A stretch of 64,000 nucleotides of DNA from Leucoraja erinacea. Its lineage: Eukaryota. Location: NCBI RefSeq assembly GCF_028641065.1, contig NC_073380.1:32798001-32862000 (forward strand), given 5' to 3'. The translations under genes were made by a program, and so were the position numbers. Below are positions 79 through 60,679 of this stretch, piece by piece; within the stretch, counting starts at the first letter, position 1, and each line of letters begins with the position of its first letter. The notes under the pieces are model-generated. The model was given only the letters and a program-made list of their open reading frames with translations, had not been told where the DNA came from and made no database searches.

Positions 79-1587
79 ACTCCACCATTGACTAAATTCC
101 ACAATTTAGGAATCTGCAGATGGTGGTGCAATTCTGACTATTGTTCATTTCTGCATCAACTTACTCAAATGTAGTAAAAGCATTGTACTTTTGAATCAAT
201 TGATTAAATAATACAATCATAATTTGAGGCTGCCTTCCGCGTCAATTTGTATGTGCTCCTTTTTTGCAACGGGATCTCATTCCTGAAAGAGTTTTTTCTG
301 CCTTGTATTTTTGAAAATAATGCAGCACATTCAAGGACATTAAGCACAACATCAAAATTGATTTAACATTGTCCATTGTGTGTATGAAAACACCCACTTC
401 TGTCCATTATGTTGCTTCCTCGGTCCATCTTGCTCTAAATTTCTTAAGTCATTGTCACGTGAACAGTTGACATCTGTACATTTCTGGTCGGCCGACAAAA
501 CTGCATTAACTTTATTACAATTAAAACTACTCTCTTTATCCTGTTTTCACTGACTGATAAAGTCTCGCATTATCACAGACTAAAAGTCTCCTTTTTGTTG
601 TTCAATTTCTGTAAAGAAATAAGTTAGTTCAGGACCATCATTGGCTTAGATCAAGGTATCATCTATGTATTAGTGAGATTTTTTGCCTTGGGACATGAAA
701 TCAAGTGCTACAAGATAAAATAGCATTGCGTCCAGTTGAGCTGACAGTTCACAATGACATGCAGACTCGTAAACTTGTAGTTCAAAGATGAGTGGAGATG
801 AAACTGGACAGAAATATGAGAACGAAGCATCTTTCATTTAAGCAGCAATAATGTTTTGACAAAGACATCAACTTAGGATAAAACCCAACAAGATATGTTT
901 ATACTCACATTGTAAACCGAGGTTTTAACTATCAATAAATATTTTGAAATATCTTTGGCATAACTCCTTCTGTTCAGCTCAAAGAAACCTAAAGTTCAAA
1001 CCAAAATTCCCAACCAAAATAATTTGGACACCATGATAGATTTGAATGTCAATAGTCCACCGCAGTGTGAAATAATATTTACATGTTTGTCATTCAGTTG
1101 TTTTTCAATGTGGATCTGATTGCAAATTAGAATAACTATTTTGTAGCGAAAAAGGTGAGTGACAGAAGAGCAAGCTTCTTGGATTATGGTTTGTCATTTA
1201 TAAAATATAATGTAAAACAAAGAAGTGAAGCACATCATTTAGTTTCCTCAGGGGTTCTTTGTAAAAATTAGGCAGAATTCTGCAATGTTGATTCAACTGT
1301 TGATGCAAACTATTTGTAAATGTTGGGGTTTAAAGAAAAATATATTTATACTTTTTTTTTAGAAAGGCGCGTCATGATAAAATGTTGCTAAATACATATA
1401 GCTGCTTTGCTCCTCTTTTAGCCTATTTATATACTGCTAATACATTTTGCATATTATTTGTCATCTGATAATGATTGAAAATTTTAGCAGATTGCTGCCG
1501 GTTCCCAATTTCAAATCATTTATTTATATGGTAAAGTGCAAAGGTCTGGCACACCATGCTTTAGTTACCACTCCATGTTTTCTGTTT

Positions 1588-2212
1588 TAGACAAAAATGC
1601 TGGAGAAACGCAGCGGGTGAGGCAGCATCTATGGAGCGAAGGAAATAGGCAACGTTTCGGGTCGAAATCTGCCGACAAGGGAGATGCCGTGGTAGTCTGG
1701 CGCGCTGATCTCTACAAGGCTGAGGCCATGCGACAACTCTCAGACACCTCCTCCTACTTATCCTTGGACCATGACCCCACAGACGAACACCAGGCCACTA
1801 CCTCTAGCACCATCACTGACTTCATCAACTCTGGCTCCCTGCCCTCCCAAGCCTCCAACCTCATCATTCCCCAGCCCCGCACGGACTGATTTTACCCTCT
1901 CCCCAAAATCCTCAAACCTGACTGTCCTGGCAGACCCATTGTTTCTGCCTGTTCGTGTCCTACCGAAATTATTTCCACATACCTCGACTCCATCCTACCC
2001 CCCCTGGTTAAATCCCTCCCTACCTATGTTCAAGACACCTCACACGCTCTTCATTTACTCTAGGACTTCCGTTTTCTAGGCCCCCATTAAAAAGGGTTTT
2101 GACCCGAAAGTTGCGTATTTCCTTCGCTCCTTTGATGCTGCCTCACTCTCTGAGTTTCTCCAGCATTTTTGTCTACCTTCAATTTCCCAGCATCTGCAGT
2201 TCCTTCTTAAAC
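1588..2212 (+). mobile_element. Penelope-like element: inverted terminal repeat, RT fragment, terminal repeat
   Basis: ORF remnant ADKGDAVVVW...YKAEAMRQLSD followed by the frameshifted ccccaaaatc/ggcagacccattgtt (PKI, GRPIV) region typical of PLE RT. 1588-1668 is an inverted copy of 2090-2180. Confidence 0.8.
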
Positions 2213-2680: not shown

Positions 2681-2737
2681 TTTCTCAATGGATTTTCTTA
2701 ATTCATACATGGTGTCACAATTATCTTTGGACTAATT

Positions 2738-4557
2738 ATTGGCACTAAAAAAACTCAAGAGTAAGAAATCCACAGATTGTCATGATATTGACATGTTTAC
2801 AGTTAAAAACATTATAGAATGCATAGCAAGACCTCTGACTCACATTTGTAATCAGTCCCTTCAAACCGGTGTATTTCCCAACAAAATGAAAACAGCTAAA
2901 GTCATACCAATATATAAAACTGGAGACAAACATGTACTTTCAAATTACAGACCCATTTCATTGCTTCCACAGTTCTCCAAAATACTGGAAAAAATATTTT
3001 GCACAAGACTGGACGAATTTATCACCAAACATAACATACTGTACGAACAACAATATGGTTTTAGAGCTAACAGAACAACTTCATTTGCAATTATTGAATT
3101 TATAGAAAAAATTACTAAGGCAATAGAAAATGCAGTATGCAGTAGGGATTTTTTTGGACTTAAAAAAAGCATTTGACACCGTAGACCACGAGTTATTAAT
3201 AAAGATAAGGAAACTACAAAGATATGGCATTAGAGGCATCGCACTATCATGGCTATCCAGCTACCTACAGAACCGGGAACAATATGTCGAAATACAAAAC
3301 CATAAATCACAATTACTGCAGGTTACGTGTGGGGTGCCCCAGGGCTCAGTGTTAGGGCCATTATTATTCATTTTGTATATCAATAATATATGTGAAGTGT
3401 CAAAAACTCTTGAAACTATTCTCTTCGCTGATGATACTAACTTACTCTGCTGTGGAGACAACTTGGAACAGCTCCTGGATAGTATGGAAAAGGAATTGAG
3501 CAGGATGAAGATCTGGTTTGACGAAAATAAACTCACATTGAATTTAAGTAAAACAAAATTCATAATATTTGGAAATCGATCAACCAACACAGAGAAAAAG
3601 CTCATGATAAATGGCACAGAAATAGAAAGAGTATCTGAAATAAAATTTCTTGGAGTATTAATTGACAACAAATTAACTTGGAAACCTCACATAAATTATA
3701 TTAAAGCCAAAATATCCAAACCAATTGCAATACTGAATAAAGCCAGAGACCTACTAAATCAAGCCTCCCTGTATATGTTGTACTGCTCCCTCATACTCCC
3801 ATACATGATCTACTGTGTGGAGGTATGGGGGAACACATACAAAACAAATACACATCCAATCTTCATCCTCCAAAAAAGAGCAATACAAATTATACATAAA
3901 ACCACCTACAGACAATCAACAAAACCATATTTATCAGACTAAAAACATTAAAATTTCAAGATCTGACAGATTATAAAACTATCCAAATTATGTTCAAAGC
4001 AGCTAATCAGCAATTGCCTTGTAATATCCAGGGGTTGTTCCAACGGAGAGAAAGCAAACAAAACCTGAGAGGAACCTATATATTCGAAAAAACGGCAATA
4101 AGAACTAATGCAAAACTCCATTGTGTTACAGCAAAGGGTGTTAGTCTCTGGAATAACTGCCATGATGAGCTGAAAAAATGTAAGACTCTATTCAAACTAA
4201 AAACACTCTTCAGAAACAAAAGATTGAATGGTTATGAGCTGGACCAGTGATTTTCTTTTCTTTTCTGTTTGGTTATTTCTTGTGTGTTGACTGTTCAACA
4301 GATTGTGGGTCCATTTGTTCCCATTATTTTGTTTTTCCATGAAAATGTATAGAAAATAAGAGGGGGTAGGATCAGAAAAGTTTTCGAACTTCTTCTCCCC
4401 TTTTGAACATGAACGATATTATTTGTATTATTTGAGTTACTTATTTGTTTGTTTTCCTTTGTGTTTTATTTTCTTTTTTTATTGCTTACAAGTTTATTTG
4501 TGTTTGTATTTTTTAACATGTTCAATAAATTAATAAAGTTAAAAATAAGTAAAAAAG
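2738..4557 (+). mobile_element. 5'-truncated L2-group (Crack/Daphne-like) LINE; RT pseudogene with two frameshifts
   Basis: [48 protein letters not shown] and LFADDT in ORFs 2739-3176, 3130-3942 and 3990-4250. T-rich 3'UTR and A-rich tail ending near 4557. Confidence 0.85.
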
Positions 4558-14765: not shown

Positions 14766-16268
14766 CTCTATAGTATATGAATATATAGTGTGTACTTTAA
14801 TTAGGATGTGTTTTCTAATGACTATTTTCTGGATTAGATGTCTAGCACTAGAAATGGTTGTCAGCAAAGCAATAATTCAAGAACAGAATAACCAGAATGA
14901 CAATGATTTGCCTCAATAAATGTACATTTACTTTGCTGATTTTAAACTACATCGTTTTTGGCATAGCTGGTGTATCAGGAGAAAGAAATGTTTGTATTTG
15001 TGGCTAATTGCGACACATAGAAAACTCAGACTGCAAGTTATGGTATTGGTCATTTCCTTTATTAATGACTGTTGTTGCAGTCAGACAGAACATGGCAAAG
15101 TCAGAGAGGAAGTTGGATAACAAGAACACCGAGATATGTCAAAACTTAATGTATTAACCTTGAGTTTGTATGTCCTTCCTGTCTACAAACCTCATGGCAT
15201 TGTCAAGTTTTTGACTATAATACTGATTTAAAGTGAAGACAGTCTATGCAAACCTTATGTGATGTAATTGTATCCTTTGGAGGCAATGCAATTCCTCAGC
15301 ATTGATTGAGCCTGTCAATTTACAAGCCTGCAGAGAAACTCCAATCCTCCAACATGCTCCTTAGATAGCAGGCACTAAGAACAAGGAATGAGAGCATGAG
15401 TAGGCTGTACAGTTCTTTGAGTCTGCTTGGCTGTTCAATGAGATCATTGCCCCAGCTCTACTCTTCCGCTGGTTCCTATGATTCCCCAAATCGACCAAAA
15501 ATCAGTTTTATCTCAGGCATGACTGCTGTATGCAGAATACTCAAGTATAATAAAAACCTCTGCTAACAGCAAAGTAATTCAATGTCTTCAGCTCTCTGGT
15601 GTAGATAATGCCAAAGATTCACAGCACTCTGAGCGAAGAATTTCCTCCATCTTTATCTTAAAAGGTAGACCCCTCATCTAAAACTGATCCCTAGTTTTTT
15701 TAATGTAATGCCATGAGGGAAGATGACCTCTCAGCTACTAACATCTCATGCCCCTATTTTGCTAGCTTCAGCTCTTCTTCTGTGCCAGTTCCCCATAACC
15801 TTCAATTCCTCATGTTCTCAAATGTTTATCTATCTTTATCTTACTATGTATTTAATATTTTGTCCTCCACCATCTTCTGGAGCAGGAAATTCCCGAGATT
15901 CACTTCCTCACGAGGCAAATCCATCATCTCAGCTAATTCAGTACAAAATTAACCTATTTTGTACTAAGTTGTAAAATTGAAACTATAAATTACCATACAG
16001 GCATAGAATGGGTTGCTTTAAAATCTATTTACATGCTCTGCACTAACAACTTACCAGCTCTATTGCCAGTTGCAAGTGAAGGCAATAATATATAACATCG
16101 ATCATATTAACAAAAGCACATGTTACAGGGTAGACACGGATGCGACTAGTTGTTACTAATTTGAAAACATGATTGGACATTTCCTGGTGTATTTTACTAC
16201 TTTTGAGTACCAGCAGTTCTGGCCACTGACACAACATGTTACAAGGCCATCTCTGGAGAGAAATGGGT

Positions 16269-16296
16269 GACGTTTCAGGTCGAGACCCTTCTTCAG
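16269..16296 (-). ncRNA. Minimal type I hammerhead ribozyme-like core
   Basis: Reverse complement reads CTGAAGA-A-GGGTCTCGACCT-GAAA-CGTC. Confidence 0.55.
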
Positions 16297-16554
16297 ACTA
16301 GTCAGGGGAAAGGGAAATGAGAGATATAGATAGTGTTGTAGAGAAATATAAAACAAACGAATGAAAGATGTGCAAAAAAATTACAATGATAAAGGGAACA
16401 AGCTATTGGAAACAAGCCAATGTTTCCTTTTTTATCATTGTTACATTTTTGCATATCTTTCATTCATTTTTTCTACATCTCTCTACAGCACCGTCTATAT
16501 CGTTTGTTTCCCCTTTCCCCTGACTAGTCTGAAGTAGGGTCTCGACCCGAAATA

Positions 16555-18962: not shown

Positions 18963-19097
18963 AGGGGATCGTTGCTATTTTTCCCATTCTAGGGAGACAC
19001 AGGGCGTCGCGGTGTGCCCGCGCCGCCGCCATTTTAGAAAACTGTATCTTCTGAACTAACTGAAACATTGTCTGGTCTACATGGAAGATAAACATAA

Positions 19098-19298
19098 GCA
19101 TGTCTGGGGAGAAGGAATGGGTGATATTTCGGGTCGAAACCCTTCTTCAGACCTGAAGACCTTAGACAGTCTGAAGAAGGGTCTCGACCTGAAACGTCAC
19201 CCATTCCTTCTCTCAATATTCTGCCTGTCATACTGAGTTACTCCAACATTTTGTGTCTATTCTCGGTGTTAACCAGCACCTGCAGTTCCTTCCTACAC
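19098..19298. mobile_element. Palindromic Penelope terminal-repeat module with opposed hammerhead cores
   Basis: Minus-strand core at 19123-19150 and plus-strand core at 19171-19198. Confidence 0.8.
19171..19198 (+). ncRNA. Minimal type I hammerhead ribozyme-like core
   Basis: CTGAAGA-A-GGGTCTCGACCT-GAAA-CGTC with a GUC cleavage triplet. Confidence 0.55.
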
Positions 19299-25320: not shown

Positions 25321-27860
25321 AACTGGTGTTGATGGGACATGTTGGCAAATTGGGCCGAAGGGCCTGTTTGCATACAGTATGACTATTAGACAGTTTTGTG
25401 AGGGATAGTTTCAGAGTGCCTATTATGGCCATTGCTGTGAACACAAAAGAGACAGCGGCTGCTGGCATCTGGAACAAGCAACAGAACGCTGGTAGAACTC
25501 AGTGGGTCAAGCAGCATCTGTGGAAGTAAAAGGGGTTTTGACATTGCCATGGTCTGCGTGAATGCAGGAAGCAGCATTGTTGCAATTATCGATGTAGCAG
25601 GGAAAAGCTGGGAGAGGGGTGCTGGAATTGGCTTGCAGCCAACAAAAAAACCAATGTAGGTGAGGCCCAAGTGAGTAGTTGTGGTTCTCATTGGATATGA
25701 TTGTCAAAAGCAGGTTGTCCAACTGTACAGTGTATAACTTTGTCTTATTTTATCATGGACTCTAAAGTACTCAGAATTGCAACATAATGTTCCCAAATCC
25801 CTGGCACAGGGCTTGCATCACTACCCCCAGGCAGTACACTTTACAGAAGCAGTTTATTATACTTTTGAGAAATGTCAAAGATCGCTACGGCAAAAATCAA
25901 ATAGACTATAATTTTTTCCCTACCGTACAAGATTGGACACACACTCATATTTTGTTGTGCTTTCCTTAATACCAGATAATAAAACTTCCCCAGTTTCTGT
26001 TTCATATAATCTCACATATTGGAAAAAATAACATCTTCAGTTAAATAAAAAGCAGTTGAAGTAAGCTAATGATTTTTTGTTTAGTTCAGTTTAGTTTATT
26101 GTCATGTGTATCAGAGGTACAGTTTTCTTCTTTTTGGCGCGTGCTATCCAGTCAGTGTAAAGACCTCTATGATTATAATTGGGCTGTCCAGCAGTGGGCA
26201 TTGTAAACATCACACGTATGGAACGTTAAACCAGGGCTGTCTGCTTAAAGAAAGTCCGAGGGTCTTGAATCCATAGATGGTAGTTCACCATTCTCTAGCA
26301 GCGGGTTCAATTGTGACATCACACGATGGAAGAAATTGTCCAGGGAATGGGGATGTTCTATGGGTTTTTCACACAGTTTGTTTTTAAATATTGTGGGGGG
26401 GGGGGGGGGGGGGGGAGGGGAGAAGGATTTGATTAAAAATGTGTACATAAACACGACGAAATTTTATCAGGGTTTCTATAAGATAATCTTCTAAAATCTA
26501 GCGAGTACAAATGTATTTGAGCAATATCCAGTCTTTCTTCATATGAAAGTCCTGACATCCCAGGAATCTGTCTGGTGAACCTTCTCTGTACTCCCTCTAT
26601 GACAACAATGTATTTGAGCAATGGGCATTGTGACATCACACGATAGAACGTTCACCAAGTGCTTGTGCGTAGCAAGGAATCAAAGGAAGAAATGGCAGCC
26701 GGCAGCCATGGACGAATGCCGACAGGCAGGTTTAGATAGATAGATAGATAGATTGATATCTAGATAGATAGATAGATAGATAGATCGAAAGTCAGACAGA
26801 CAGACACCTTTGCACAGAGTGTTTGACAGACAGACATACTTCAGACAGACAGACCAGAGAGAAACAAACACAACAGATAGATAGATAGATGGGCCAAACA
26901 CAGGCAGGTGCCTGGTGTTCATGGGACATTGGCAAATTGGGCCGAAGGGCCTGTTTGCACACTGTATGACTATTAGACAGTTTTGTGAGGGATAGTTTCA
27001 GAGTGCCTATTATGGCCATTGCTGTGAACACAAAAGAGACAGCGGCTGCTGGCATCTGGAACAAGCAACAGAACGCTGGTAGAACTCAGTGGGTCAAGCA
27101 GCATCTGTGGAAGTAAAAGGGGTTTTGACATTGCCATGGTCTGCGTGAATGCAGGAAGCAGCACTGATGCAATTGTCGATGTAGCAGGGAAAAGCTGGGA
27201 GAGGGGTGCTGGAATTGGCTTGCAGCCAACAAAAAAACCAATGTAGGTGAGGCCCAAGTGAGTAGTTGTGGTTCTCATTGGATATGATTGTCAAAAGCAG
27301 GTTGTCCAACTGTACAGTGTATAACTTTATCTTATTTTATCATGGACTCTAAAGTACTCAGAATTGCAACACAATGTTCCAAAATTCCTGGCACAGGGCT
27401 TGCATCACTACCCCCAGGCAGTACACTTTACAGAAGCAGTTTATTATACTTTTGAGAAATGTCAAAGATCGCTACGGCAAAAATCAAATATACTATAATT
27501 TTTTCCCTACCGTACAAAATTGGACACACACTCATAGTTTGCTGTGCTTTCCTTAATACCAGATAATAAAACTTCCCGAGTTTCTGTTTCATATAATCTC
27601 ACATATTGGAAACGTAACATCTTCAGTTAACTAAAAGCAGTTGAAGTAAGCTAATGATTTTTTGTTTAGTTCAGTTTAGTTTATTGTCATGTGTACCGAG
27701 GTACAGTGAAAGGCTTTTTGGCGCGTGCTATCCAGTCAGTGGAAAGACTATACATGATTATAATTGGGCTGTCCACAGTGTATGCATGATAAAGGGAGTA
27801 ACGTATAGTGTAAGATAAATTCCAGTAAAGTCTGCTTAAAGATAGTCCGAGGGTCTTCAA
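25321..27860 (+). repeat. Near-identical direct duplication (about 25321-26250 vs 26910-27860) next to the gap
   Basis: Duplicated sequence; nearly identical spurious ORFs 25386-25691 and 26973-27278. Confidence 0.9.
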
Positions 27861-28764: not shown

Positions 28765-29882
28765 TAACCATATAACCATATAACAATTACAGCACGGAAA
28801 CAGGCCATCTCGGCCCTTCTAGTCCGTGCCGAACACGTATTCTCCCCTAGTCCCATCTACCTGCACTCAGACCATAACCCTCCACTCCTTTCCCGTCCAT
28901 ATAACTATCCAATTTATTTTTAAATGATAAAATCGAACCTGCCTCCACCACCTTCACTGGAAGCTCATTCCACACAGCTACCACTCTCTGAATAAAGACG
29001 TTCCCCTTCATGTTACCCCTAAACTTCTGTCCCTTAATTCTCAAGTCATGTCCTCTTGTTTGAATCTTCCCTACTTTCAGTACGAAAAGCTTATCCACGT
29101 CAACTCTGTCTATCCCTCTCATCATTTTAAAGACCTCTATCAAGTCTCCCCTTAATCTTCTGCGCTCCAAGGAATAAAGACCTAAATTGTTCAGCCTTTC
29201 TCTGTAACTTAGTTGCTGAAACCCATGCAACATTCTAGTAAATCTCCTCTGTACTCTCTCTATTTTGTTGACATCCTTCCTATAATTAGGCGACCAAATT
29301 GTACAACATATTCCAGAATTGGCCTCACCAATGCCTTGTACAATTTTAACATTACATCCCAACTTCTATACTCAATGCTCTGATTTATAAAGGCCAGCAC
29401 CAAAAGCTTTCTTTACCACCCTATCTACATGAGATTCTACCTTCAAGGAACTGTGCACAGTTATTCCTAGATCCCTCTGTTCAACTGCATTCCTCAATTC
29501 CCTACCATTTACCATGTACCACTAACTTCCCTCAATGTCCTAGGGAATATCCTGTCGGGACTTGGAGACTTATCCACTTTTATATTTTTCAAAAGTGTCA
29601 GTACTTCCTCTTCTTTGAATCTCATAGTTTCCATAGCTACTCTACTTGTTTCCCTTACCTCACATGATTCAATATCCTTCTCCTTGGTGAATATGGAAGA
29701 AAATAAATTGTTAAATATCTCCCCCATCTCTTTTGGCTCTGCAGATAGCTGTCCACCCTGACTCTAATGGGCCAATTTTATCCCTCGTTATCCTTTTGCT
29801 ATTAATATAGCTGTAGAAACCCTTTGGATTTACTTTCACCTTACTTGCAAAGCAACCTCATATCTTCTTTTAGCTTTTCTAA
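28765..29882 (-). mobile_element. CR1 LINE fragment with an internal deletion
   Basis: ORFs KEEEVLTLLKNIKVDKSPSPDRIFPRTLRE and IERVQRRFTRML...RGDLIEVFK...WNELP; (TTATATGG)n tail. Confidence 0.9.
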
Positions 29883-30631
29883 TAGAAGGAACAGTTAGTT
29901 AGTCAAAATGTTTTGTAAATACTTTTTTTGTGTTGGATTCGGTGGAAAGGACTAGTAAATGTTTCCTGAGACCATTGCCTTCCATCTCATTTGTCTTCAT
30001 CTAATTCAAGAATTTCAGAGAGAATGACAGTGCCCTTAACTTTTGACAGAATTTGAGCACATCTGTAAAAGCATGCTGTTTTCCTAGTCTGTCAATAAAT
30101 AGTTTATCAATAATAACTGTGGATGTTAATCCTTTGGATTCTCACACACCTTCAAAATTCTGACTTCCAAGGAATTACTGATTTTACAAAGGAAGAAAAT
30201 TAAAAGAAAATGGAAAATTAAAAGAAAATGAAAAAAGAGGTATTTAAAAATATATATTTATATGGTGCCTTTTGCACTGGGTATCAAAAAGTTCTGTACA
30301 TCCTATTTTTTTAATATATTGACTGGTCTAGAAGAGGAAACAACTAATTTATACACAAGATGCTCCAACAAATAACAGTAAAATAAGTGCCAGATCATTT
30401 CTTTTAGCTATTTGTTGAGAGTTAAAAATTGAGCTGTATTTATAGAATCTCTTGCATCTTCCTGAGAGAGCGCAGTTGGAATGACTGTTAAGGGCAGCTT
30501 ATTTGACAGTTCAGCGTGCTCTGATTTCTGCACAGAAATGTCACCCAGCATCATGTGCTCGAATCTCCGAAATGAGGCTTCCTGAACCTGCAGTTTTCAA
30601 TTTCAGAATAAAGGTTAATTTACCCCCTGGC

Positions 30632-30845
30632 CACAAAGTGCTGGAGTAACTCAGCAGATCAGGCTTCATCCCTGGAGAACATGGATAGGTGACATTTCGG
30701 GTCAAGACCCTTCATCAGTCTGAAGAAAGATCTTGGCCGGAAACATCACCTTTCCATGTTCTCCAGGGCATGATGCCTGACCTGCTGAGTTACTCCAGCA
30801 CCTTGTGTACTTTTGTGTATTAACCAGCATCTGCAGTTCTTTCTT
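30632..30845. mobile_element. Palindromic Penelope terminal-repeat module (~88-bp arms)
   Basis: 30632-30718 is the reverse complement of 30720-30807; degenerate hammerhead cores meet at the centre. Confidence 0.8.
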
Positions 30846-31644: not shown

Positions 31645-31735
31645 AGATAGACACAAAATGGTGGAGTAACTCAGCGGGAGAGGCAACATCTCTGGAGAGA
31701 AGGAATGGGTGATGTTTTGGGTCAAGACCCTTCTT
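31645..31735 (-). mobile_element. Penelope terminal-repeat fragment
   Basis: TAGACACAAAATGGTGGAGTAACTCAGCGGG...GGGTCAAGACCCTTCTT. Confidence 0.7.
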
Positions 31736-31877
31736 TGGACTCTACAGGATACAATACTCTACAGGAGACAAAGATTCAAGCAATTGAGTGATGAATCTGA
31801 GAGTAGGTATAAATGGCCATTTCTGAGTTTTTAAAAGTTGTGGAAACAAATATACAACACATTTCCAAATATCATGG

Positions 31878-32765
31878 GTAGACAAAAATGCTGGCGAAAC
31901 TCAGCAGGTGAGGCAGCATCTATGGAGCAAAGAAAATAGGCGACGTTTCAGGTCGAGACCCTTCTTCAGACTGATGTGGGGGTGGGGGCTGGAAGAAGAA
32001 AGGAAGATGCGGAGACAGTGGGCTGTGGAAGAGCTGGGAAGGAGAGGGAAAAGAGGGAGAAAGCAGGGACTACCTGAAATTGGAGAAGTGAATGTTCATA
32101 CCTCAGAATGTTCTAGGATGTAAACTAACCAAGCGAAATATGAGGTGCTGCTCTTCCAATTTACAGTGGGCATCACTCTGGCCATGGAGGAGGCCCAGGA
32201 CAGAAAGATCGGATTCGGAATGGGAGGGGGAGATGAAGTGCTGAGGACCGGGAGATCAGGTTGGGTTATTGCGAACCGAACGGAGGTGTTGGGTGAAGCG
32301 ATCACCAAGCCTACTCTTGGTCTCACTGATGCAGAGCAGCTGACACATAGAGCAGCGGATGCAATAGATGAGGTTGGAGGAGGTGTAGGTGAACCTCTGC
32401 CACACCTGGAAAGACTGCTTAGGTCCTTGGATGGAGCCAAGGGGGGAGGTAAAGTGACAAGTGTAGCACTTCCTGCGGTTGCAAGGGAAAGGACCAGGAG
32501 AGGGCGTGGTTTGGATGGGAAGGGACAAATTGACCAGGGAGTTACAGAGGGAGCGGTCTCTGCAGAAAGCCGAAAGGGGAGGAGATGGGAAGATGTGGCC
32601 AGTGAAGGGATCCCATTGGAGGTGGCGAAAATGTCGGAGGGTTATCTGTTGTATGTGACGGCTGGTAGGCTGGAAGGTGAGGACAAGGGGGACTCTGCCC
32701 TTGTTACGAGTGGGGGGATGGGGAGTGAGAGCAGTTACGGGATATAGAGGAGACCCTGGTGAGAG
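31878..32765 (-). mobile_element. Penelope-like element 3' part: GIY-YIG endonuclease remnant plus terminal repeat
   Basis: PCNRRKCYTC...FTYTSSNLIYCIRCSMCQLLCISETKSRLGDRFTQHLRSVR (GIY-YIG with the PLE CxxC/CCHH context), followed by the terminal module. Confidence 0.9.
31942..31969 (-). ncRNA. Minimal hammerhead ribozyme-like core in the PLE terminal repeat
   Basis: Reverse complement reads CTGAAGAAGGGTCTCGACCTGAAACGTC, downstream of the GIY-YIG ORF remnant. Confidence 0.6.
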
Positions 32766-33824
32766 TTCTCCAAATATCTTAGTAGCTTGTCCTTTAAAGG
32801 ACTATTGTTTCCCTTTAATATTAGCTTGGCAATACAGATGATTGTTGTGAAAGTTGGTAAATTGGATTGCGATCAGGCATACATCTATCTAGCAATGAAC
32901 AATAATGTTGTTGATAAACCAATAAAATGCTTCTTCTTTGTTTTTGTGTGGGGGGGGGGGAGTTTGAGAGGAATCATTGGCTTTCTCTTCGAATAGAATG
33001 GGGTCTCTCTCTGAGTCAGAGTCTTGCCAGGTTGATAGGGAGGATTCCCTTATGGGCACATGGATAACCCAGGCCCATGCTAAGAATATAGTGGAAGAAG
33101 CTGTTGGCCATTGTCCTAACCATCTAGATTGGGAATCCTCATCACTCCCTATCTCCTAATGAATTGACCATTCTGCTACATGTAACTGTGCATATAAAAG
33201 TTCACATACTGGTAACACAAGAGCAGGAGAACTCTGTTAAGGACTAAGAAATAAACTACTCACATGAAGGCTTGCATGGATGTAAATCAAGATAGATAGC
33301 ACATTGTCCATTGCTTGACCAAATGCACAAGGTAGCAAGGAAGATGGAAACGCCATTTCTAACCTCTTGCAGGGGAAAGTATAAAGGCAGAAGAGAGTCA
33401 CATCAATCCTGGAGCAAACACATTTTCCCATTCAAGGATCTGGCAACAATTCCATTTTACAACGGGAAGTGGCTTTTGTTTTGGCTTTCTTGATATGGCA
33501 GACTGAGGTCAATCAAAATGTTCACATCACTGCCTAGTCTCTGATTGACCCCATTAAATTGCTGCAGATTGAAGCCTCGGAGCAGGTTGCTGTCTTGAAA
33601 GGACAGTGAGTTGTCATCTGTGAGCAGCTTGCTGCTCTCCAGGAATTGAGTAATTATTGAGTCAATGAGTGAGGGGCGGGGAGAGGCAACTAATTCGCAG
33701 TGAACAGTCAATTGTTCGGCAAACAAAGTAAATTCTGCGCAAAGAGCAGTTATTTAAAGTACAGGTGAAACGGAAAATGGAGCAAATTGTCCCAATTAAA
33801 ACAGTGACAAACAGCTAACAATCG

Positions 33825-34030
33825 CCTGTTTCCTTTATGATCCTTACTTTTTTGCATATCTTTCATTCATTGTTCTATATCTCTCTTCATCATCGTCTAT
33901 ATATCTCATTTCCCTTTCCCTTGACGAGTCTGAAGAAGGGTCTCGACCCAAAACGCCACCCATTCCTTCTCTCTAGAGATGCTGCCTGTCCCGCTGAATT
34001 ACTCCAGCTTTTTGTGAGTATCTTCGACTT
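33825..34030 (+). mobile_element. Penelope terminal-repeat module with a mutated hammerhead core
   Basis: CTGAAGAAGGGTCTCGACCCAAAACGCC at 33930-33957. Confidence 0.75.
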
Positions 34031-34869
34031 CTTCAGCAACAACCATTATGTGTCAGCAACGCATAAGTTATGCATAAAATCATTATCAGTCACTTAAAGC
34101 TTGATTGGCATAGGAATTACCCAATGCGCTCCACTCAATCTGGTCATAGCATTGTATTATACACAGCCCTGAAGATAAACTACTGATGCAGAAAATCCTG
34201 CACCATGTCCTCTGTGATTCCAATTGCATCAGAACTAGCTTATTGGCTCCAGTGAATGAGAACGAATGAACAAGCACAGAAAATATATTTCTGGTCTTAC
34301 CTAAATCATAATTGGCTATGTTAGATAACATTTTTGTTGCTATTTGATAATGGGACCTTTGTTAATTACGAATTTAAATTGCGTGTCCAAATTAGCATTT
34401 AAAATGAAACTGGACTTCCCCAAAGCTTAGTGGGAAGATTTGTCAGTTGATTTTAGCACTAGGAATGCAGCCTGCACTTTGATTCACTGGTCTTGCTGAG
34501 TTAGCTGACTATATCTGCAAAGGGCAGGCTATTGCCTTTCTGATCGCAGGTTAGGGGAAGGAAAGAAAGTACGTGTCTGTGTATCATCAAACAAATCGAG
34601 GAATGTAGACCTGGTGCATTCCTGAAGAGCAATGGTTATGCCTTGCCTCAGAAATAATTGAATTCCCATAATTAATGTACCTGTGCAATCCTACCTTTTA
34701 CCGGCTTCAATAGCAAACTCAACGTATCTGGTAGGAAGTGGTATTGCTACGAGGGAAGTAAATGTATGCTCATCTGAGGTAAAGAATTTCAATACTGAAG
34801 GGCTCAACAGCAGCATCTATGGACAAAGCGAACAGCCATAGGCAACAAGTTCCATCAATAACTTGGTGG

Positions 34870-35170
34870 AACCGAAACCCTTCTTCAGACAACTGATCGG
34901 GGGACCAGACACTTGTCGGATTTCGGACATTTTCGGATTTCCGAATGGAATATTTTTAGGGGGGGCGGAAAAGTCTGGGGACAAGAAAGGGAAAAGGAGG
35001 AGGAGCCCGAAGGCTGGGGGATGGGAGGAGACAGCAGGGGGGCTGAGGAAGGGGAGGAGACAGCAAGGACTAACAAAATTGGGAGAATTCGATGTTCATG
35101 CCCCCGGGATGCAGACTCCCCAAACGGAATATGAGGTGCTGTTCCTCCAATTTCCGGTGCTGCTCGCTGT
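34870..35170 (-). mobile_element. Penelope 3' fragment in a mosaic region
   Basis: Reverse strand EQHRKLEEQHLIFRLGSLHPGGMNIEF; partial CCCTTCTTCAGAC core. Confidence 0.7.
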
Positions 35171-35369
35171 GGAGCATCTGGTAGGAAGTGGTATTGCTAC
35201 GAGGGAAGTAAATGTATGCTCATCTGAGGTAAAGAATTTCTGAATACTGAAGGGCTCAACAGCCAGAATCACACCCTGAAGTCCGACAAAGTTGAGAACA
35301 GCCATGGATTTTAAGAACAAGCTGTTCCATCAATAACTTGCAGTGGAACTCTTTACAGACAAAAGAAAT

Positions 35370-35426: not shown

Positions 35427-36019
35427 TACTTTATTTACATTAAAGGGCAAGTTATCGACTTTAGATTGTAAAGAATCTTTTTGTGACTATGGTATCGAAG
35501 GAAGAGACTTTTGTTTATCTGCCTTCATCAGGTGACTTTGTTCCCAACCTGAAGCCTATCACCTTGGGAATGAGAGAGGATGCATTTGATATCACTGCCA
35601 CCTTTCCCCACGAGAGATCCTTTTCTGTTGTTTCCAGCGTAGGATTTTCCTGACTTGCATTAATTCTAAGAGTATCTGCAAGATGAAATAGTTTTTTATT
35701 TGGCCTAGACCAAAGTGCTGGAGAAACTCAGCGGGCGCAACAGCATCTTTGGAGCGAAAGAAATAGGCAAAGTTTTATTTGGCCTCTTCATGAGCCCAGG
35801 TACTCTGCGTGCAATCTGCTTTATATATCACAGTCTGTTTGTCCTGCACCGTGGAACCCACTCCCTGTACCATTGCTGCTCAAATTTCCACTCATTCGTG
35901 GCTTTATAATAGGTTTCCAATAATCTCCAAGAATTTTGCACCCGGATTAATCAAGAATCTATCTCTGCCTTAAATATATCTCTTGACTTGGTCTCTACTG
36001 TTGTAAATGGACCATTGGA

Positions 36020-36890
36020 TAACTGCTATGAGGATGCAGGATAATTTGAACAGGTTGAGTGAGTGGGCAGATACATGGCAAATGCAGTTTAATGTGGATA
36101 AATGTGAGGTTATCCAATATAGTGGCAAAAACAGAAAGGCAGATTATTATCTGAATGGTGTCAAGTTGGGAAAAGGGGAAGAACAACAAGATCTGGGGGT
36201 CCTTGTTCATCAGTCACTGAAAGTGAGCATGCAGGTACAGCAGGCAGTGAAGAAAGCTAATGGTATGTTGGCCTTCATAAAGAGAGGAGTTGAGTATAGG
36301 AGCAAAGAGGTCCTTCTGCAGTTGTACAGGGCCCTACTGAGACCACACCTAGAGTACTGAGTGCAGTTTTGTTCACCTAGACTTGAGGAAGGACATGCTT
36401 GCTATTGAGGGTGTGCAGCGTGGTTGTGTGTGGATGGCTGAACTGTGTGTGTTGATAGAATGGGGTTGTGCTGGTGTGTTGTATGTGTGTGGTGTTTGTG
36501 TGTGTGTTGTGTGTGTGTATGTGTGATTGTTGTGGTGTGTGGACATGCTAGAGGCAGGGGGTGGGGAAAATTTTCCCGATGTCCCCTGCATCCTGAACCG
36601 TGACCTTTCCCTTTAAGAATAAGGGGTTAGCCATTTAGAACAGAAATGAGGATAAACTTTTTCACCCAGAGAGTTGTGAGTGTGTGGAATTCTCTGCCTC
36701 AGAAGTCAATGGAAGCCAATTCTCTGGATGCTTTCAAAAGAGAGATATAGCTCTTAAAGACAGCAGTTGGGGGATATTGTGAGAAGGCAGGAACGGGGTA
36801 CTGATTGTGGATAATCAGCCATGATCATATTGAATGGCGGTGCTGGCTCAAAGGGCCGAAGGGCCTACTCCTGCACTTATTGTCTATGGT
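36020..36890 (+). mobile_element. CR1 LINE 3' fragment with a mosaic centre
   Basis: ORF WADTWQMQFNVDKCEVI...KKANGMLAFI...LYRALLRPHLEY plus tail. Confidence 0.85.
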
Positions 36891-48124: not shown

Positions 48125-49180
48125 ATAATAATAATAATGATAATAATACATTTTATTTATGGGCGCCTTTCAAGAGTCTCAAGGACACCTTACAAAAATT
48201 TAGCAGGTAGAGGAAAAACATGTAAGGGGAATGAAATAAATAGTAGAGACATGACTAGTACACAGAGTAAAGACAGAATACAATTCAAAACACAATATGA
48301 GGCAATTAATGCACAGATGAAAAGGGAGGGGGACGTGGGGCTAAGGATAGGCAGAGGTGAAGAGATGGGTCTTGAGGTGGGACTGGAAGATGGTGAGAGA
48401 CACGGAATTGCGGATCAGTTGGGGGAGGGAGTTCCAGAGCCTGGGAGCTGTCCTGGAGAAGGCTCTGTCCCCAAAACTACGGTGGTTGGACGTGGATGGA
48501 GAGGAGACCGTGATGTGGATCTGAGGGACCATGAGGGTTGGTAGGGGGAGAGGAGGTCAATGAGATATGGGGGTGCCAGATGGTGGAGGGCTTTGTAGGT
48601 GAGGATCAGGATTTTGTAGGTGATCCGGTGGGAGATGGGAAGCCAGTGAAGTTGTTTGAGGACTGGAGTGATGTGATGCCAGGATTTGGTGTGGGTGATG
48701 AGTCGGGCGGCTGCGTTCTGGACCAGTTGGAGTCGGTTGATGTAGGTGGAGCTGATGCCAAGGAGAAGTGAGTTGCAGTAGTCCAGTCGGGAGGAGATGA
48801 AGGCATGGATGAGTCTTTCAGCAGCGGGAGGTGTGAGAGAGGGTCTGAGTTTGGCGATGTTGCCGAGATGAAAGAAGGAGGTTTTAATGACATGGCGGAT
48901 GTGAGGCTCAAGGGAGAGGGTGGAATCAAAGATCACGCCAAGGTTGCGGGCCTTGGGAGATGGGGAGACAGTGGTGCCGCCGATGGTGAGAGTGGGGTTA
49001 TTGATTTTGCTGAGTGTGGCTTTGGAGCCTATGAGGAGGAATTCTGTCTTATCGCTGTTGAGTTTGAGGAAGTTATGTTGCATCCAGGTTTTTATAGCTG
49101 ACAAACAGGAGTTGATATGGGAGAGGGGGGGCTTGTGGGGGGATTTGGTGCCGAGGTAGATCTGGGTGTCATCGGCGTGT
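48125..49180 (-). mobile_element. L2 LINE 3' portion (RT C-terminal pseudogene)
   Basis: ADDTQIYL, NFLKLNSDKTEFL, RNLGVIFD, SRLDYCNSLL, LQLVQNAAARL, HITPVLKQLHWLP; (TTA)n tail. Confidence 0.92.
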
Positions 49181-51359
49181 AGCTCCAGAAAACTATACAA
49201 TATGTGTAGCTCCAGAAAACAGACATTTCTGACACAGAGAAATCAGCCAACAGACATTTCTCAGGAATAATATAACCCAACACAATAATATAATAATATT
49301 CATTTAAAAGTGCAGAAACATAGTTTTATTTTTTAAATTATGTTTAATTGGTCTCTTTTATTAATATTTTTTTGATGTAATTCTGAATATGACTGACATT
49401 CAGAATCATCAGAAAAGCTTGACAAGTTTGGCTTGCTATCAGGTGAAGTTTGCTGGTAATTTTTCGATGTTCTTTTTTCTTGTTCTGACCTGCCCATGTT
49501 GTCTCTGTCACAATCATGAGGGTCCCTCCTAAGAGGGATTAGCCAGAATCCCGTTATTCGGCTCCAGAAATGGTCTTAAACAGAAAGATTACCTTTACTG
49601 CTGCAGACATTGTGAAGGAATGATAAGGTAGTACCTGTCAGGTCAATGTGGTTCAGCCAATAGTGTCTGCAATAGTGTCTGCAAAATCCAGGCCAGAGTA
49701 TAAAAAACATTTTTATTTCTTTGACATTTCTGCAGAGATATGAAACATTTTCTTTTGTCATACATATCTTTAGGCATGAGTCTTTCAAAGGTTTTGCATC
49801 TGAAACTTATGCTTAAGGGTGTCACATGATATTATGCCATTCATCCATTTCCTTGCAGGCACACGTCAACGTTTCTGCCATAAATGCAAGGTTCTCTCTA
49901 AAAGTAATATTTAGATATCAGACTAAATTGTAAAGATGTCTAAAGCATTCTGTCTGAAATGGCAAATATCACTGAGAAACCAGTGAGGAACAGGGACTAA
50001 TCAGATCACTTCATTTAAATTTTAAATTTAATTAATTCCTCAATGGCTAATCTGAGGAAATACCAAGAAGATCTCATGATTTCTTTCACAAGTTAAGATT
50101 TCTCAAACTGATTTTCTCCACTGAGTCCTGGCTGCTCCCCAGCTGCAGACACCTTCATTCCCTCAATCCAGCTGCACTTCTCATTACTATTTCTGACCTT
50201 GCAATTAACTCTGCCTCTAAGTAGTTCCAAGGTTTCATTTTCAAGTTTGGCTGCTCAAGTATGTGGGAGATTGCTGAAGAATACTCTGGTAATAAAATAT
50301 GCTGTGCATCACTGTATCAAATCATAGTGCTCTGTTGGTAGTGCAGTGTTGGTACCTCAACATTTTGCTTTTGCTATTTGCTTTGTAAAATGAATTGTAA
50401 TTTAGGTTTATTTAATGTGATTGCATTACCGTATTAAGTAACTCATTGCTCTTGTAAAGCATTTCTGGCAATTTGGTAAGCCAAATAGCTCAGTCCAAAA
50501 TGCATCAGAGAACAAACTATCAGATGATACAGAGCCACCTGCTCATAAATCATACCTTCATATTTGCACAAATAATTCATCTACAACTCAAATCAGAGCT
50601 GATTTATTGGTGCAAGGTGCTATTGCCTTGTCTGAAGTGAGAGATGAAAAGGAGGGGGTGGATACCCTGGTACCTTACAGTGCCATTTATCATCCAAGTA
50701 ATAATTTATACTGCGACTTCTTAAACAAAAGGTTATTTCTGCATCACCTTTCTGTCCAAATTCTGTGTCCTTGACATGGGAAAGTAGGTTACACTTTCAC
50801 TGACTTTTTAACTCTTTGAAATTGGAATTGAACTTTCTGCAGTTTATGATCTATTTCCAGATATTTACATTTTGAAACTGTTATCCTGTCAAAGTTTTTC
50901 AAAGGTCTATGATTCTGTTGCTGAATTAGTTGCCCGATATAATGTTAATGTGGCATCAAAATTAAGTTTCATAAATTTATACCATATGAGTGGCAGTATA
51001 AAGGTGTCTTCAGAATTTGTAAGTCAACCTTGGATCCTTGCTTTGACTAATGGAGTGGTTTGGTGGTTAATTAGGTACCATAAATAATCCCCGGTGTAAG
51101 TGATGGCAGGAGAATTGAAGAGGAGTTGATGGGCATGAGTATGAGAGAATAGTTACAGGGAAACAAGTTTGGAAATGGGACTAATAGGAATGCTCAAAGA
51201 GCCATCATAGCCTAAAAGGGCCAAATGGCCTCCTTCCTTGTCATAGGAAAATATGAGATATAAATATTTTTTTATATACCCAACCTTCATTTCATCACTG
51301 ACATTGTTGCTAATGAACTTTTAAAGGTTTAATATTATCAACCTGTCATATTGATTCTT

Positions 51360-51885: not shown

Positions 51886-52136
51886 AAAGATTTTTCAACA
51901 AATTTTGATCAATTGGGATGCAGCGTTTCATTTATCTAAGCTGGAACTGCTTACTCTTCTTGCTATCAGAACCTAAATTAGTTTCTTTAAAGTTTTGGAT
52001 GAAAGAACAATCTTATAAATGGTACTGGTATAAAGGAAAGAAGGGTAAGGTTTGCATTTTATTTGATCATGGTGTCACTGGAATTTTTGTATGTTGGAAG
52101 GAACTTTTTTTTTCAAATGCATGCAGAAACAAAGCC

Positions 52137-53118
<982 letters not shown>

Positions 53119-53223: not shown

Positions 53224-54598
53224 ATCATCATCGGCGGTCACTCAAAATGAGTGCGACTGTCCTCTCCTCTCCATTGGGTTGTCTATTTGTGGGTCTGCAG
53301 ATGTCTGTCGAGGCCGATCTGCTCACCTTGGTGCAACGTGGACAGTGGAGACTGGCGGTGTTTGTTGTTGAGCCCCCTTCTCTCTCTCCATACGGTGCTG
53401 TCGCTTTGTCTCTGCGACACGGCATACTTACATTTCGTTACTTGCAGCTCCTTCCTGCACGGATTTCCTCCAGGAGAGCCTGTCTAGTGCAATGTGCTCC
53501 CAGTTGTGATGTGGAATTTCTTCAGACTGTTCTTGATGTTGTCCTTGAAGTGTTTCTTCCTTCAATTGAGAGTACAGGATTTGTTTATGGAGGTGTATGT
53601 TGGAAATGTGGATGACATGGCCAGTCCATCGAAATTGTTGCTGCATTATTGTGGTGGTTTATCTGGTTATGTTGGCTTGTCCCAAAACACTGATGTTGGT
53701 GTGTTTGCCCTCCCAGCTGATCCTCAGAATCTTTCGTAAGGATCTTTGATGATATTTTTCCAGAGCAGCAGACATGATATTCACCGCAAGCCAACTCCTG
53801 GAAAAATGCCGTGAACAATGGTAGCCTTGGCCTTCATATACCTGACAAAGGCTTTTGACTCGGTAGACCGCCAGGCTCTTTGGAGCATACTATCAAGGTA
53901 CGGTTGCCATTACAAGTGCATCAGAATCTTGAGGCTTCTACATGATGGTATATCGGTCACAGTGCTCAGCAACTGCAGCTCTGTTTTGAGCCCTTCACTG
54001 TGGAAACGGGGGTCAAACAGGGATGCATCATCGCACCCACCCTGTTTGTCGTCTTCATTGCTGCCATACTTCACCTCATTGGTGAAGCGCTGCCACAGGG
54101 GATTCCAATCTTCTACAGAACTGACGGTGGGCTCTTCAACCTTAATAGGAAGATAGCAAGAGCAAAGTCAGTTACACCGCCATCATGGAGCTTCAGTACA
54201 TGGACGACTGTGCCATTGCAGTACACTCTGCAGAAGACCTCCAGGGCATCCTGAATGCCTTTGCCAAGGCATACAGAGCTATGGGCCTAGCCTTAAATCT
54301 CAAGAAGACACAGGTCCTACATCAATCTCCACCCAACCAGCCGTCTACCCAGCCAACTATAAAAGTGGACGACACCACTCTTGAAAATGTTGACCACTTC
54401 CCCTACCTTGGCAGCATTCTTTCCTCAAAAGCTGACATCGACTCTGAGGTCAACCATTGCCAGCGGAGCACTCAGGAAAAGAGTCTTTGAAGACCGAGAC
54501 CTAAAGGCTCAAACAAAACGGCTGGTCTACAGAGCCATGCTGTTGTATGGAGCCGAGTCATGGACCAGCTACAGCTCCTATCTGCGAGCCCTGGGACA
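53224..54598 (-). mobile_element. RTE (BovB-like) LINE with a 5' inversion
   Basis: Minus segment 53224-53764: EKYHQRSLRKILRISW, QFRWTGHV, WEHIALDRLSWR and a (GAT)n tail. Plus segment 53765-54598: LTKAFDSV, GVKQGCIIAPTLF, QYMDD, LLYGAESW. Confidence 0.88.
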
Positions 54599-55299: not shown

Positions 55300-55480
55300 A
55301 TGGAGCTGAGTCATGGAATAGGCGACGTTTCAGGTCGAGACCCTTTGTCAATCTGAAGAAGGGTCTTGACCCGAAACGTTGCCTATTCCTTCGTTCCATA
55401 GATGCTGCCTCACCTGCTGAGTTTCTCCCATTATTTTTGTCTACCTTGGATTTTTCCAGCATCTGCAGTTCTTTCTTGAG
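55300..55480. mobile_element. Penelope terminal-repeat module with opposed hammerhead cores
   Basis: GACGTTTCAGGTCGAGACCC (-, partial) followed by a plus-strand core. Confidence 0.8.
55353..55380 (+). ncRNA. Minimal hammerhead ribozyme-like core
   Basis: CTGAAGA-A-GGGTCTTGACCC-GAAA-CGTT: intact G10.1-C11.1 pair and a GUU triplet. Confidence 0.55.
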
Positions 55481-56729: not shown

Positions 56730-56830
56730 CCAAGATAGGACACAAAGTGCTGGAGTCACGAAGCAGATTAGGCAGCCTCTATGGAGAACATGGAATGATG
56801 ACATTTTGGGGCAGACCCTTCTTCGGACAG
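56730..56830 (-). mobile_element. Penelope terminal-repeat fragment
   Basis: GACACAAAGTGCTGGAGT...GGAGAACATGG...GACCCTTCTTC. Confidence 0.6.
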
Positions 56831-59570: not shown

Positions 59571-60679
59571 ATTATACATTGGTGATCATTTTCCAATGTT
59601 CTATAGACTCTAGATCAGTTGCTGTGGACTGGAGGGTAGTTAATGTAACCCCACTTTTTTAAGAAAGGAGGGAGAGAGAAAACGGGGAAATAAAGACCAG
59701 TCATCCTTACATCAGTAGTGGGGAAGATGCTTGAGTCGATTATTAAAGATGTTATAGCAGTGAATTTGGAAAGCAGTGACAGGATCAGTCAGAGTCAGCA
59801 TGGATTTGTCAAAGGGACTTACTTGACTAAGCATGCTTGACGAATCTTCTGGAATTTTTTGAGGATATAACTAGTACAACAGATATGGGTGAGCCAGTGG
59901 ATGTGGTGTATCTAGACTTTCAAAAAGCCTTTGACAAGGTCCCACACAAGAGATTCGTGTGCAAAATTAGAGCAGACAGGAAGCAAAGAGTAGGAATTAA
60001 CGGGTCATTTTCAGAATGGCAGGTAGTGCAGTGGGGTGCCGCAAGGCTCAGTGCTGGGACCAGTTATTTACAATATATATTGATGATTTAGACGAGGGAG
60101 TTAAATGTAACATCTCCAAGTTTGTGGATGAAACAAAGCTGGGTGGCAATGTGAGCTTCGAGGAAGATGCTATGAGGCTGCAGGGTGACTTGGATAGGTT
60201 GGGTGAGTGGGCAGATGCATGGCAGATGCAGTATAATGTGAATAAATGTGAAGTTATCCACTTTGGTGGCAAAAACACAAAGGCAGATTATTATCTGAAT
60301 GGTGTCAGATTAGGAAAGAGGAGGTGCAATGAGACCTGGATGTCCTTGTACATCAGTCACTGAAAGTAAGCACGACTCATTTACACACAGCAGGCAGCTA
60401 GAAAGCAAATGGCCTTTATAGCAAGAGGATTTGAGTAAAGGAGCAAGGAGATTGTACTGCAGTTGTACAGGGTCCTGGTGAGACCGTACCTGGATTAATG
60501 TGTTCAGTTTTGGTCTCCTAATTTGAGGAAGGATATTCTTGCTATCGAGGGAGTGCAACGTAGGTTCACCAGGTCAATCCCAGGATGCCGGGACTGACAT
60601 ATGATGAAAGAATGGGTCGACTGGGCTTGCATACACTGGAATTTAGAAGAATGAAAGGGAATCTTATAGGAACGCTAAT

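Follow-up and report, generated by a model that had tools for sequence, protein, structure and literature searches.

Most genomic copies of a Penelope-like terminal repeat in Leucoraja erinacea span the predicted cut site of its minimal hammerhead motif

The truncated element and its hammerhead motif

The window (the whole stretch of 64,000 nucleotides of Leucoraja erinacea DNA that was analysed) contains on its minus strand the end of a Penelope-like element (PLE), 5′-truncated at about position 32765 and flanked by target-site duplications (Table 1). What is left of the open reading frame (ORF) comprises the end of the reverse transcriptase (RT) region, a zinc linker of the form C-x2-C..C-x2-C and the GIY-YIG region. 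This piece is damaged: the GIY-YIG motif is mutated, a stop lies at 32256-32258 and a later stop or frameshift follows. Positions in the terminal repeat, or pseudo-LTR (pLTR), are numbered here with C3 of the hammerhead core as 0, the predicted cut falling between +27 and +28. On this scale the pLTR runs to 31878, about +90, which is the earlier of two preferred 3′ ends; the tail of 36-38 nt is missing.

The ORF piece is 75-77% identical to a genomic copy with an intact frame. That copy contains, in one frame, matches to RVT_1 (E=7e-6) and GIY-YIG (E=0.009), both under the curated cut-offs; a homologue, P0001, passes the cut-off for GIY-YIG, and a Pfam search with the window's ORF piece alone returned no match. 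A first, sequence-only reading of this DNA had placed the motif in the terminal repeat downstream of a GIY-YIG Penelope remnant, and the upstream piece, 77% identical to the RVT_1/GIY-YIG copy, upholds that placement. The same reading spoke of an elasmobranch family, and a cartilaginous fish is indeed likely: of eleven longer relatives at the protein level, nine bear the name of a shark or ray protein and two lack such a name, the best being 58-62% identical. The closest genomic relatives of the window element are 88-90% identical to it, and the window element is therefore old and dead. The family as a whole was recently active: open frames of at least 770 aa contain many of the RT matches, and a 38-mer typical of the youngest subfamilies occurs in the genome 46,046 times without mismatch.

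Full units measure about 3.9-4.0 kb and bear the motif in both flanking repeats. Among 40 loci selected by their RT match, seven have a motif at either side of the ORF; in six the two motifs are 3.7-4.0 kb apart, and one unit is shortened. A Cys-rich zinc linker lies between RT and EN, as in Neptune elements, and would make the element Neptune-type; this linker marks Neptune and Nematis elements alike (bioRxiv 2021.04.23.441226). [quoted passage not shown] Unlike them, the present element has a long proline-rich N-terminal region in its protein and a motif outside the ORF, the latter because the first ATG lies about 164 nt past C3.

Table 1. Features of the truncated element, its hammerhead motif and further copies of the terminal repeat in the window
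Feature	Position	Strand	Remarks
Target-site duplication, 5′ copy, 10 bp	32769..32778	-	same 10-mer on both flanks of the element
Broken 3′ piece of PLE ORF	32076..32735	-	tblastn to residues 835-1051 of the intact-frame copy
Pyrimidine-rich 3′ UTR / upstream part of pLTR	31972..32075	-	from sequence; common to long copies; ends TCAGT
Stem I 5′ arm (GU)	31970..31971	-	2 bp only; partners 31940-31941 (U.G, G-C)
Minimal hammerhead motif	31942..31969	-	from sequence; anatomy set against PMC4209133 (parts available)
CUGAAGA of the motif	31963-31969	-	
Extra A after CUGAAGA	31962	-	
Stem II arms	31958-31961 with 31950-31953	-	4 bp
GAAA of the motif	31946-31949	-	
C17	31942	-	follows loopless palindromic stem III (ACGU)
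3′ part of pLTR	31878..31941	-	
Target-site duplication, 3′ copy	31864..31873	-	
Two opposed older-subfamily copies	16244..16554	.	16244-16299 on -, 16526-16554 on +
Inverted pair	19097..19259	.	both cores intact
Head-to-head inverted terminal-repeat pair	30630..30808	.	joined at TCAG-T-CTGA palindrome
Solo decayed copy	31648..31742	-	starts just before core
Older-subfamily copy	33870..34020	+	own upstream UTR; GAAA mutated
Inverted pair	55308..55443	.	joined just before core
Solo decayed copy	56739..56829	-	9-bp target duplication

The letters first taken for a hammerhead core are there exactly: the minus strand reads CTGAAGA-A-GGGTCTCGACCT-GAAA-CGTC at 31942-31969, which is a minimal type I hammerhead motif, and with up to three mismatches the motif matches 8 times in the window as against 0 in 100 shuffles. 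The cut is predicted between 31942 and 31941, after GUC. Minimal hammerheads (min-HHRs) are a known feature of PLE pLTRs in metazoans (Cervera and De la Pena 2014, PMC4209133). As described in the available parts of that paper they resemble the present motif in having CUGANGA, an extra base between positions 9 and 10.1, the pair G10.1-C11.1, GAAA, NUH and a palindromic 15.2-16.2 with no loop III; they likewise occur in both pLTRs and in the genome mostly as dispersed single motifs or opposite-strand pairs. The extra A had at first been excused by a viroid precedent, which is superfluous because the consensus of PLE minimal hammerheads has it (PMC4209133).

With a helix II of 4 bp and a helix I of 2 bp the motif stands at the weak end of the published range, helix I usually having 3-5 bp and in few cases 2 bp (PMC4209133). 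The pairing check confirms an early caution that stem I is only about 2 bp long. This is also its length in 85 of 91 intact long copies, and the duplex is predicted to be unstable (+0.8 to +1.4 kcal/mol). Stem II of the window copy contains a G10.1.U11.1 wobble that stems from CpG decay; standing alone, with stem II so weakened, this copy is likely inert. The palindrome ACGU could form a dimeric helix III (predicted duplex -3.1 kcal/mol). For monomer and dimer alike the lowest-energy fold is not the hammerhead (z -0.07 to 0.91), and the 5′ arm of stem II is predicted to be able to pair instead with bases past the cut site. A scan with curated hammerhead models, suggested at the outset as a check, did not recover the motif: Rfam gave no hammerhead match in the window at E up to 10.

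Copy number and conservation of the motif

A profile built from 10 window copies (nhmmer) found 28 copies in the 64-kb window and 293 in 800 kb of sequence drawn at regular intervals from 15 large contigs, with none in the same 800 kb reversed. Extrapolated from 800 kb to 2.19 Gb, the genome holds about 0.8 million copies; one 28-letter pattern has 21,757 exact genome matches and its reverse has none. The very high copy number supposed from the sequence is borne out by these counts, which are far above the roughly 4,000 of coelacanth and 9,000 of Xenopus (PMC4209133). All 18 further sites at which the motif had been noted in the window have a blastn or nhmmer match, several of them being partial (near 5, 1655 and 34875) or decayed. 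Core, 4-bp stem II and palindrome are kept in only 6 of the 28 window copies, and the even sample has 33 intact motifs among 292 hits.

Copies are found solo (95-135 nt in length), as part of longer insertions, or as inverted pairs. The even sample yielded 137 anchored copies (73 solo, 33 long, 31 inverted); all loci together, which were partly picked for long or young copies, yielded 480 (192 solo, 186 long, 102 inverted). That solo copies outnumber long ones in the even sample, and have target duplications of their own, is what would be expected of a separate family, SINE- or retrozyme-like, propagated by masters of its own. We give this explanation very little credence: in every large sequence cluster the same diagnostic bases recur in solo, long and inverted copies alike, solo copies have no common flank of their own, and the tandem arrays that were observed, with a 66-nt unit, lack CUGAAGA.

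The unit of these arrays (L003:1-300, L018:2300-2630 and L019:860-1060) comes from +20..+85 of the terminal repeat, so that they constitute a pLTR-derived minisatellite lacking the ribozyme core. Several further arrangements were seen in the window. A rearranged insertion at 1588-2176 consists of an inverted terminal repeat (1588-1676, minus strand), a PLE RT piece (1665-2087, plus) and a terminal repeat (2086-2175, plus). A short PLE piece at 35056-35165 (ORF end, minus strand) lies between copies of a ~65-bp direct repeat (about 34725-34810 and 35175-35265); a fragment of the core occupies 34873-34890. Identical partial repeat copies at 25481-25526 and 27068-27113 are ~1.59 kb apart, as are similar twin matches at 26000 and 27587, a spacing that suggests a local tandem duplication. 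By eye, window ORFs of at least 110 aa look like repeat remnants; LINE reverse transcriptase remnants and one Tc1-like transposase piece were made out at 2736-4250, 28847-29365, 36007-36360, 48415-49242, 51909-52397, 53815-54490 and 60001-60363.

Conservation was assessed on seven subfamily consensuses of 3-20% mean divergence, two of nine clusters having been dropped for too few in-register members. The core CUGANGA...GAAA...NUH is invariant across all seven: 0 of 14 core positions vary, versus 18 of 59 downstream (p=0.012). The proposal that the core is better conserved than its flanks is supported to this extent, with few independent lineage changes and with one downstream block of the terminal repeat as invariant as the core. 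In all consensuses the extra A is followed by a 4-bp helix II closed by G-C. Changes within the motif affect loop II, convert U-A to U.G both in stem II and in the closing pair of stem I, or replace C17 by U17; the youngest subfamilies have stem I closed by U.G. As for stem II covariation, a check suggested at the outset, the changes are one-sided (U-A to U.G), and no two-sided change separates the subfamily consensuses. Contigs of two other organisms, set against the repeat, showed the same subfamily differences only. At 27 metagenome loci found by protein (22-53% identity) no clean motif with a stem I of at least 2 bp was detected downstream; two of them have a loose core 530-620 nt downstream of the protein match. 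Judged by sequence conservation, the motif has probably been maintained by selection in active lineages.

It is possible that what is maintained does not now cut at all, and owes its retention to a role as promoter sequence or as a site bound by the element's protein. The 2-bp stem I with its U.G closing pair in the youngest subfamilies, the alternative pairing open to the 5′ arm of stem II and the equally invariant downstream block all fit such a role, which we nevertheless hold to be rather unlikely, since the changes within the motif (in loop II, twice from U-A to U.G, and from C17 to U17) are ones that a hammerhead can accommodate. Moreover, PLE motifs with a 2-bp helix I have been published from Culex, three Drosophila species and Oikopleura (PMC4209133 Fig. 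S3), and the motif of PAc, a Poseidon element of the green anole, cuts on addition of protein (PMC11167929).

Where copies begin and end

To locate the ends of insertions, 116 young copies were picked solely by a 38-mer at +42..+79, downstream of the cut site; most come from a single contig, within its first 5.5 Mb. The 5′ ends of these copies lie at -13 or beyond in 28 instances, at -6..+2 in 61, at +3..+11 in 18, at +22 in one and at +31..+41 in eight, with none at +27..+30; these counts take in inversion junctions, and two of the 61 resemble diverged long copies. Not one of the 116 starts at the cut site. Genome-wide, 54,830 of the 60,041 copies with post-cut sequence (91%) keep the four bases before the cut. 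The fact that most copies start just before the motif and span the cut site indicates that they were likely copied from uncut RNA.

Stem II served as a genome-wide anchor: TGAA at +1..+4 accompanies it 27,917 times, TCAG at -5..-2 14,859 times and CCCNNA at -11..-6 9,495 times, the anchor alone having 47,440 matches. TGAA is present in 54-59% genome-wide versus 80-83% where contig C1 begins, a difference that suggests a local surplus of 9-14 thousand anchor matches. These exact matches to stem II and the bases downstream, without TGAA at +1..+4, are possibly a young local array or a duplicated block with a core-less piece of the repeat.

The RNA data are raw-read runs from fragmented libraries, dominated by copies inside other transcripts: 86-97% of bulk reads continue into unlike sequence and therefore come from copies carried within other transcripts. 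Read depth rises about tenfold at the 5′ edge of the core, and reads pass through the cut site, where neither a drop in depth nor a pile-up of read ends was found. Nor, in these fragmented libraries, was there a pile-up of read starts before the core.

The copy ends and the RNA do not support the initial proposal of a ribozyme family that processes PLE transcripts, as far as processing for transposition is concerned. A specific version of that proposal, in which the hammerhead as a dimer actively cuts PLE transcripts to unit-length templates, we regard as very doubtful. All min-HHR features are present and conserved across subfamilies, full units hold two motifs in tandem, and Schistosoma min-HHR dimers do cut, if weakly (PMC4209133). 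Yet young copies do not start at the cut site, the great bulk of copies span it, stem I and the predicted folds are unfavorable in monomer and dimer, no RNA reads end there (a weak test), and eight of nine Xenopus retrozyme dimers remained uncut in vitro (bioRxiv 2026.07.22.740005, parts available).

The 5′ edge is sharp at -5/-6 and coincides with TCAGTCT; 5′ ends spread over about 17 nt and are blurred by target microhomology. TCAGT, or TCAGTCT, at this edge resembles the initiator consensus. Exact duplications of at least 9 nt flank 46 of 192 solo copies, versus 0-7 in 20 shuffled pairings. The 3′ duplication copies of solo inserts cluster at +87..97 and +123..131, and copies have two fixed 3′ end points with a spacing of about 36-38 nt. 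Of 36 solo copies, 16 show at -4 the additional G that a cap would be expected to leave (p=0.006 against a single-base background, p=0.16 against a trinucleotide background). According to folding predictions, the tail base-pairs with +51..+58 of the repeat (L054:2442-2580); the long hairpin so closed would lie between the two preferred 3′ ends and around them, and with z about 0 this pairing alone is not significant.

A fixed 5′ edge could also arise on a long RNA if reverse transcription stalled or switched template, either at the TCAG-T-CTGA palindrome or at the C-rich tract upstream. Inverted pairs are often joined at this palindrome, breakpoints trail into the core up to +11, and the cap-G signal is not significant on the trinucleotide background. 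We nonetheless consider stalling improbable, given the sharpness of the edge, the many solo copies with plain target duplications and no fold-back, and the roughly quarter to third of young copies that cross the C-rich tract. Splicing at the AG just before the core, joining an upstream exon that completes stem I and turns the ribozyme on, is barely credible: one full unit has no donor-like site whose exon end would lengthen stem I, no such joint was seen among the matches listed from two raw RNA runs (low depth on the unique 5′ region), and solo copies share no common upstream exon. What speaks for it is a pyrimidine tract and CAG directly before TCTGAAGA, and an intron end in D. virilis that maps at helix I (PMC4209133).

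On balance, and with modest confidence, we favor the reading that the stretch is the dead, 5′-truncated end of a Neptune-type PLE with a hammerhead motif, and that most dispersed copies are short solo inserts, likely made from uncut RNA and likely by run-off from a start just before the motif. The element's protein would prime reverse transcription internally at the tail, as in PAc of the anole. Priming on the 5′ end of the mRNA would give run-off copies of 95-135 nt, and priming on read-through tandem RNA the longer 5′-truncated copies, such as the window element. Transcription likely begins at TCAGTCT; no more than 2-5 nt would then remain for the 5′ arm of stem I, a possible reason for its 2 bp. 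The motif itself likely cuts slowly and only when dimeric or in the presence of the element's protein, not at the step in which the template is made. Counting against this run-off reading, cut RNA might leave no trace among the copies if it were degraded or could not be primed.

A bolder form of the run-off reading, which we put forward tentatively and as somewhat short of an even chance, is that hundreds of thousands of solo inserts, 95-135 nt long, arose by run-off copying at the capped 5′ end of uncut mRNA. The genome would then map both RT starts as well as a transcription start 2-5 nt before the core; that start would clip stem I and leave the ribozyme nearly off, at most a protein-triggered switch acting after, or apart from, copying.

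Relation to known elements

The closest experimental parallel is PAc (Frangieh et al. 2024, PMC11167929), whose two RT start sites flank the tail and are matched here by the two fixed 3′ ends. In PAc, HHR mutants still insert, the HHR cuts only with protein and uncut RNA is the main template, with no RNA-seq ends at the cut site in the data presented (PMC11167929). PAc differs in belonging to another clade and in having an ORF that begins inside the motif, and the available parts of its description include neither solo run-off copies nor a fixed 5′ edge before the core. Penelope of D. virilis has a different layout, with a start ~120 nt upstream of the motif and an intron between (PMC2377424; PMC4209133).

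Non-LTR retrozymes are likewise pLTR-derived and hammerhead-bearing, and are reported in one cartilaginous fish, with monomers evenly dispersed (bioRxiv 2026.07.22.740005). They form tandem arrays with the motif in each unit, whereas copies here are solo or inverted and the arrays seen have no core. Tandem units with a complete hammerhead were sought in the 800-kb sample and not found as such: only 4 of its 33 intact copies have a same-strand intact partner less than 5 kb away.

The minimal PLE hammerhead is already described as a kind and is expected in Penelope elements (PMC4209133); no cartilaginous fish appears among the entries covered from Table S1 and Fig. S3 of that paper. The literature covered, which excludes most subscription journals, Repbase and Dfam and includes the retrozyme preprint with its one cartilaginous fish, contained no description of the motif letters, of shark or ray PLE hammerheads or of solo run-off copies. 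The role of PLE hammerheads has been called unclear (bioRxiv 2021.04.23.441226). What is added here is scale, together with a record of copy ends: young, nearly identical insertions in the tens of thousands, with ends that accord, in vivo, with the uncut main template of the sole in vitro system (PMC11167929), and which predict an exact RNA start for the element.
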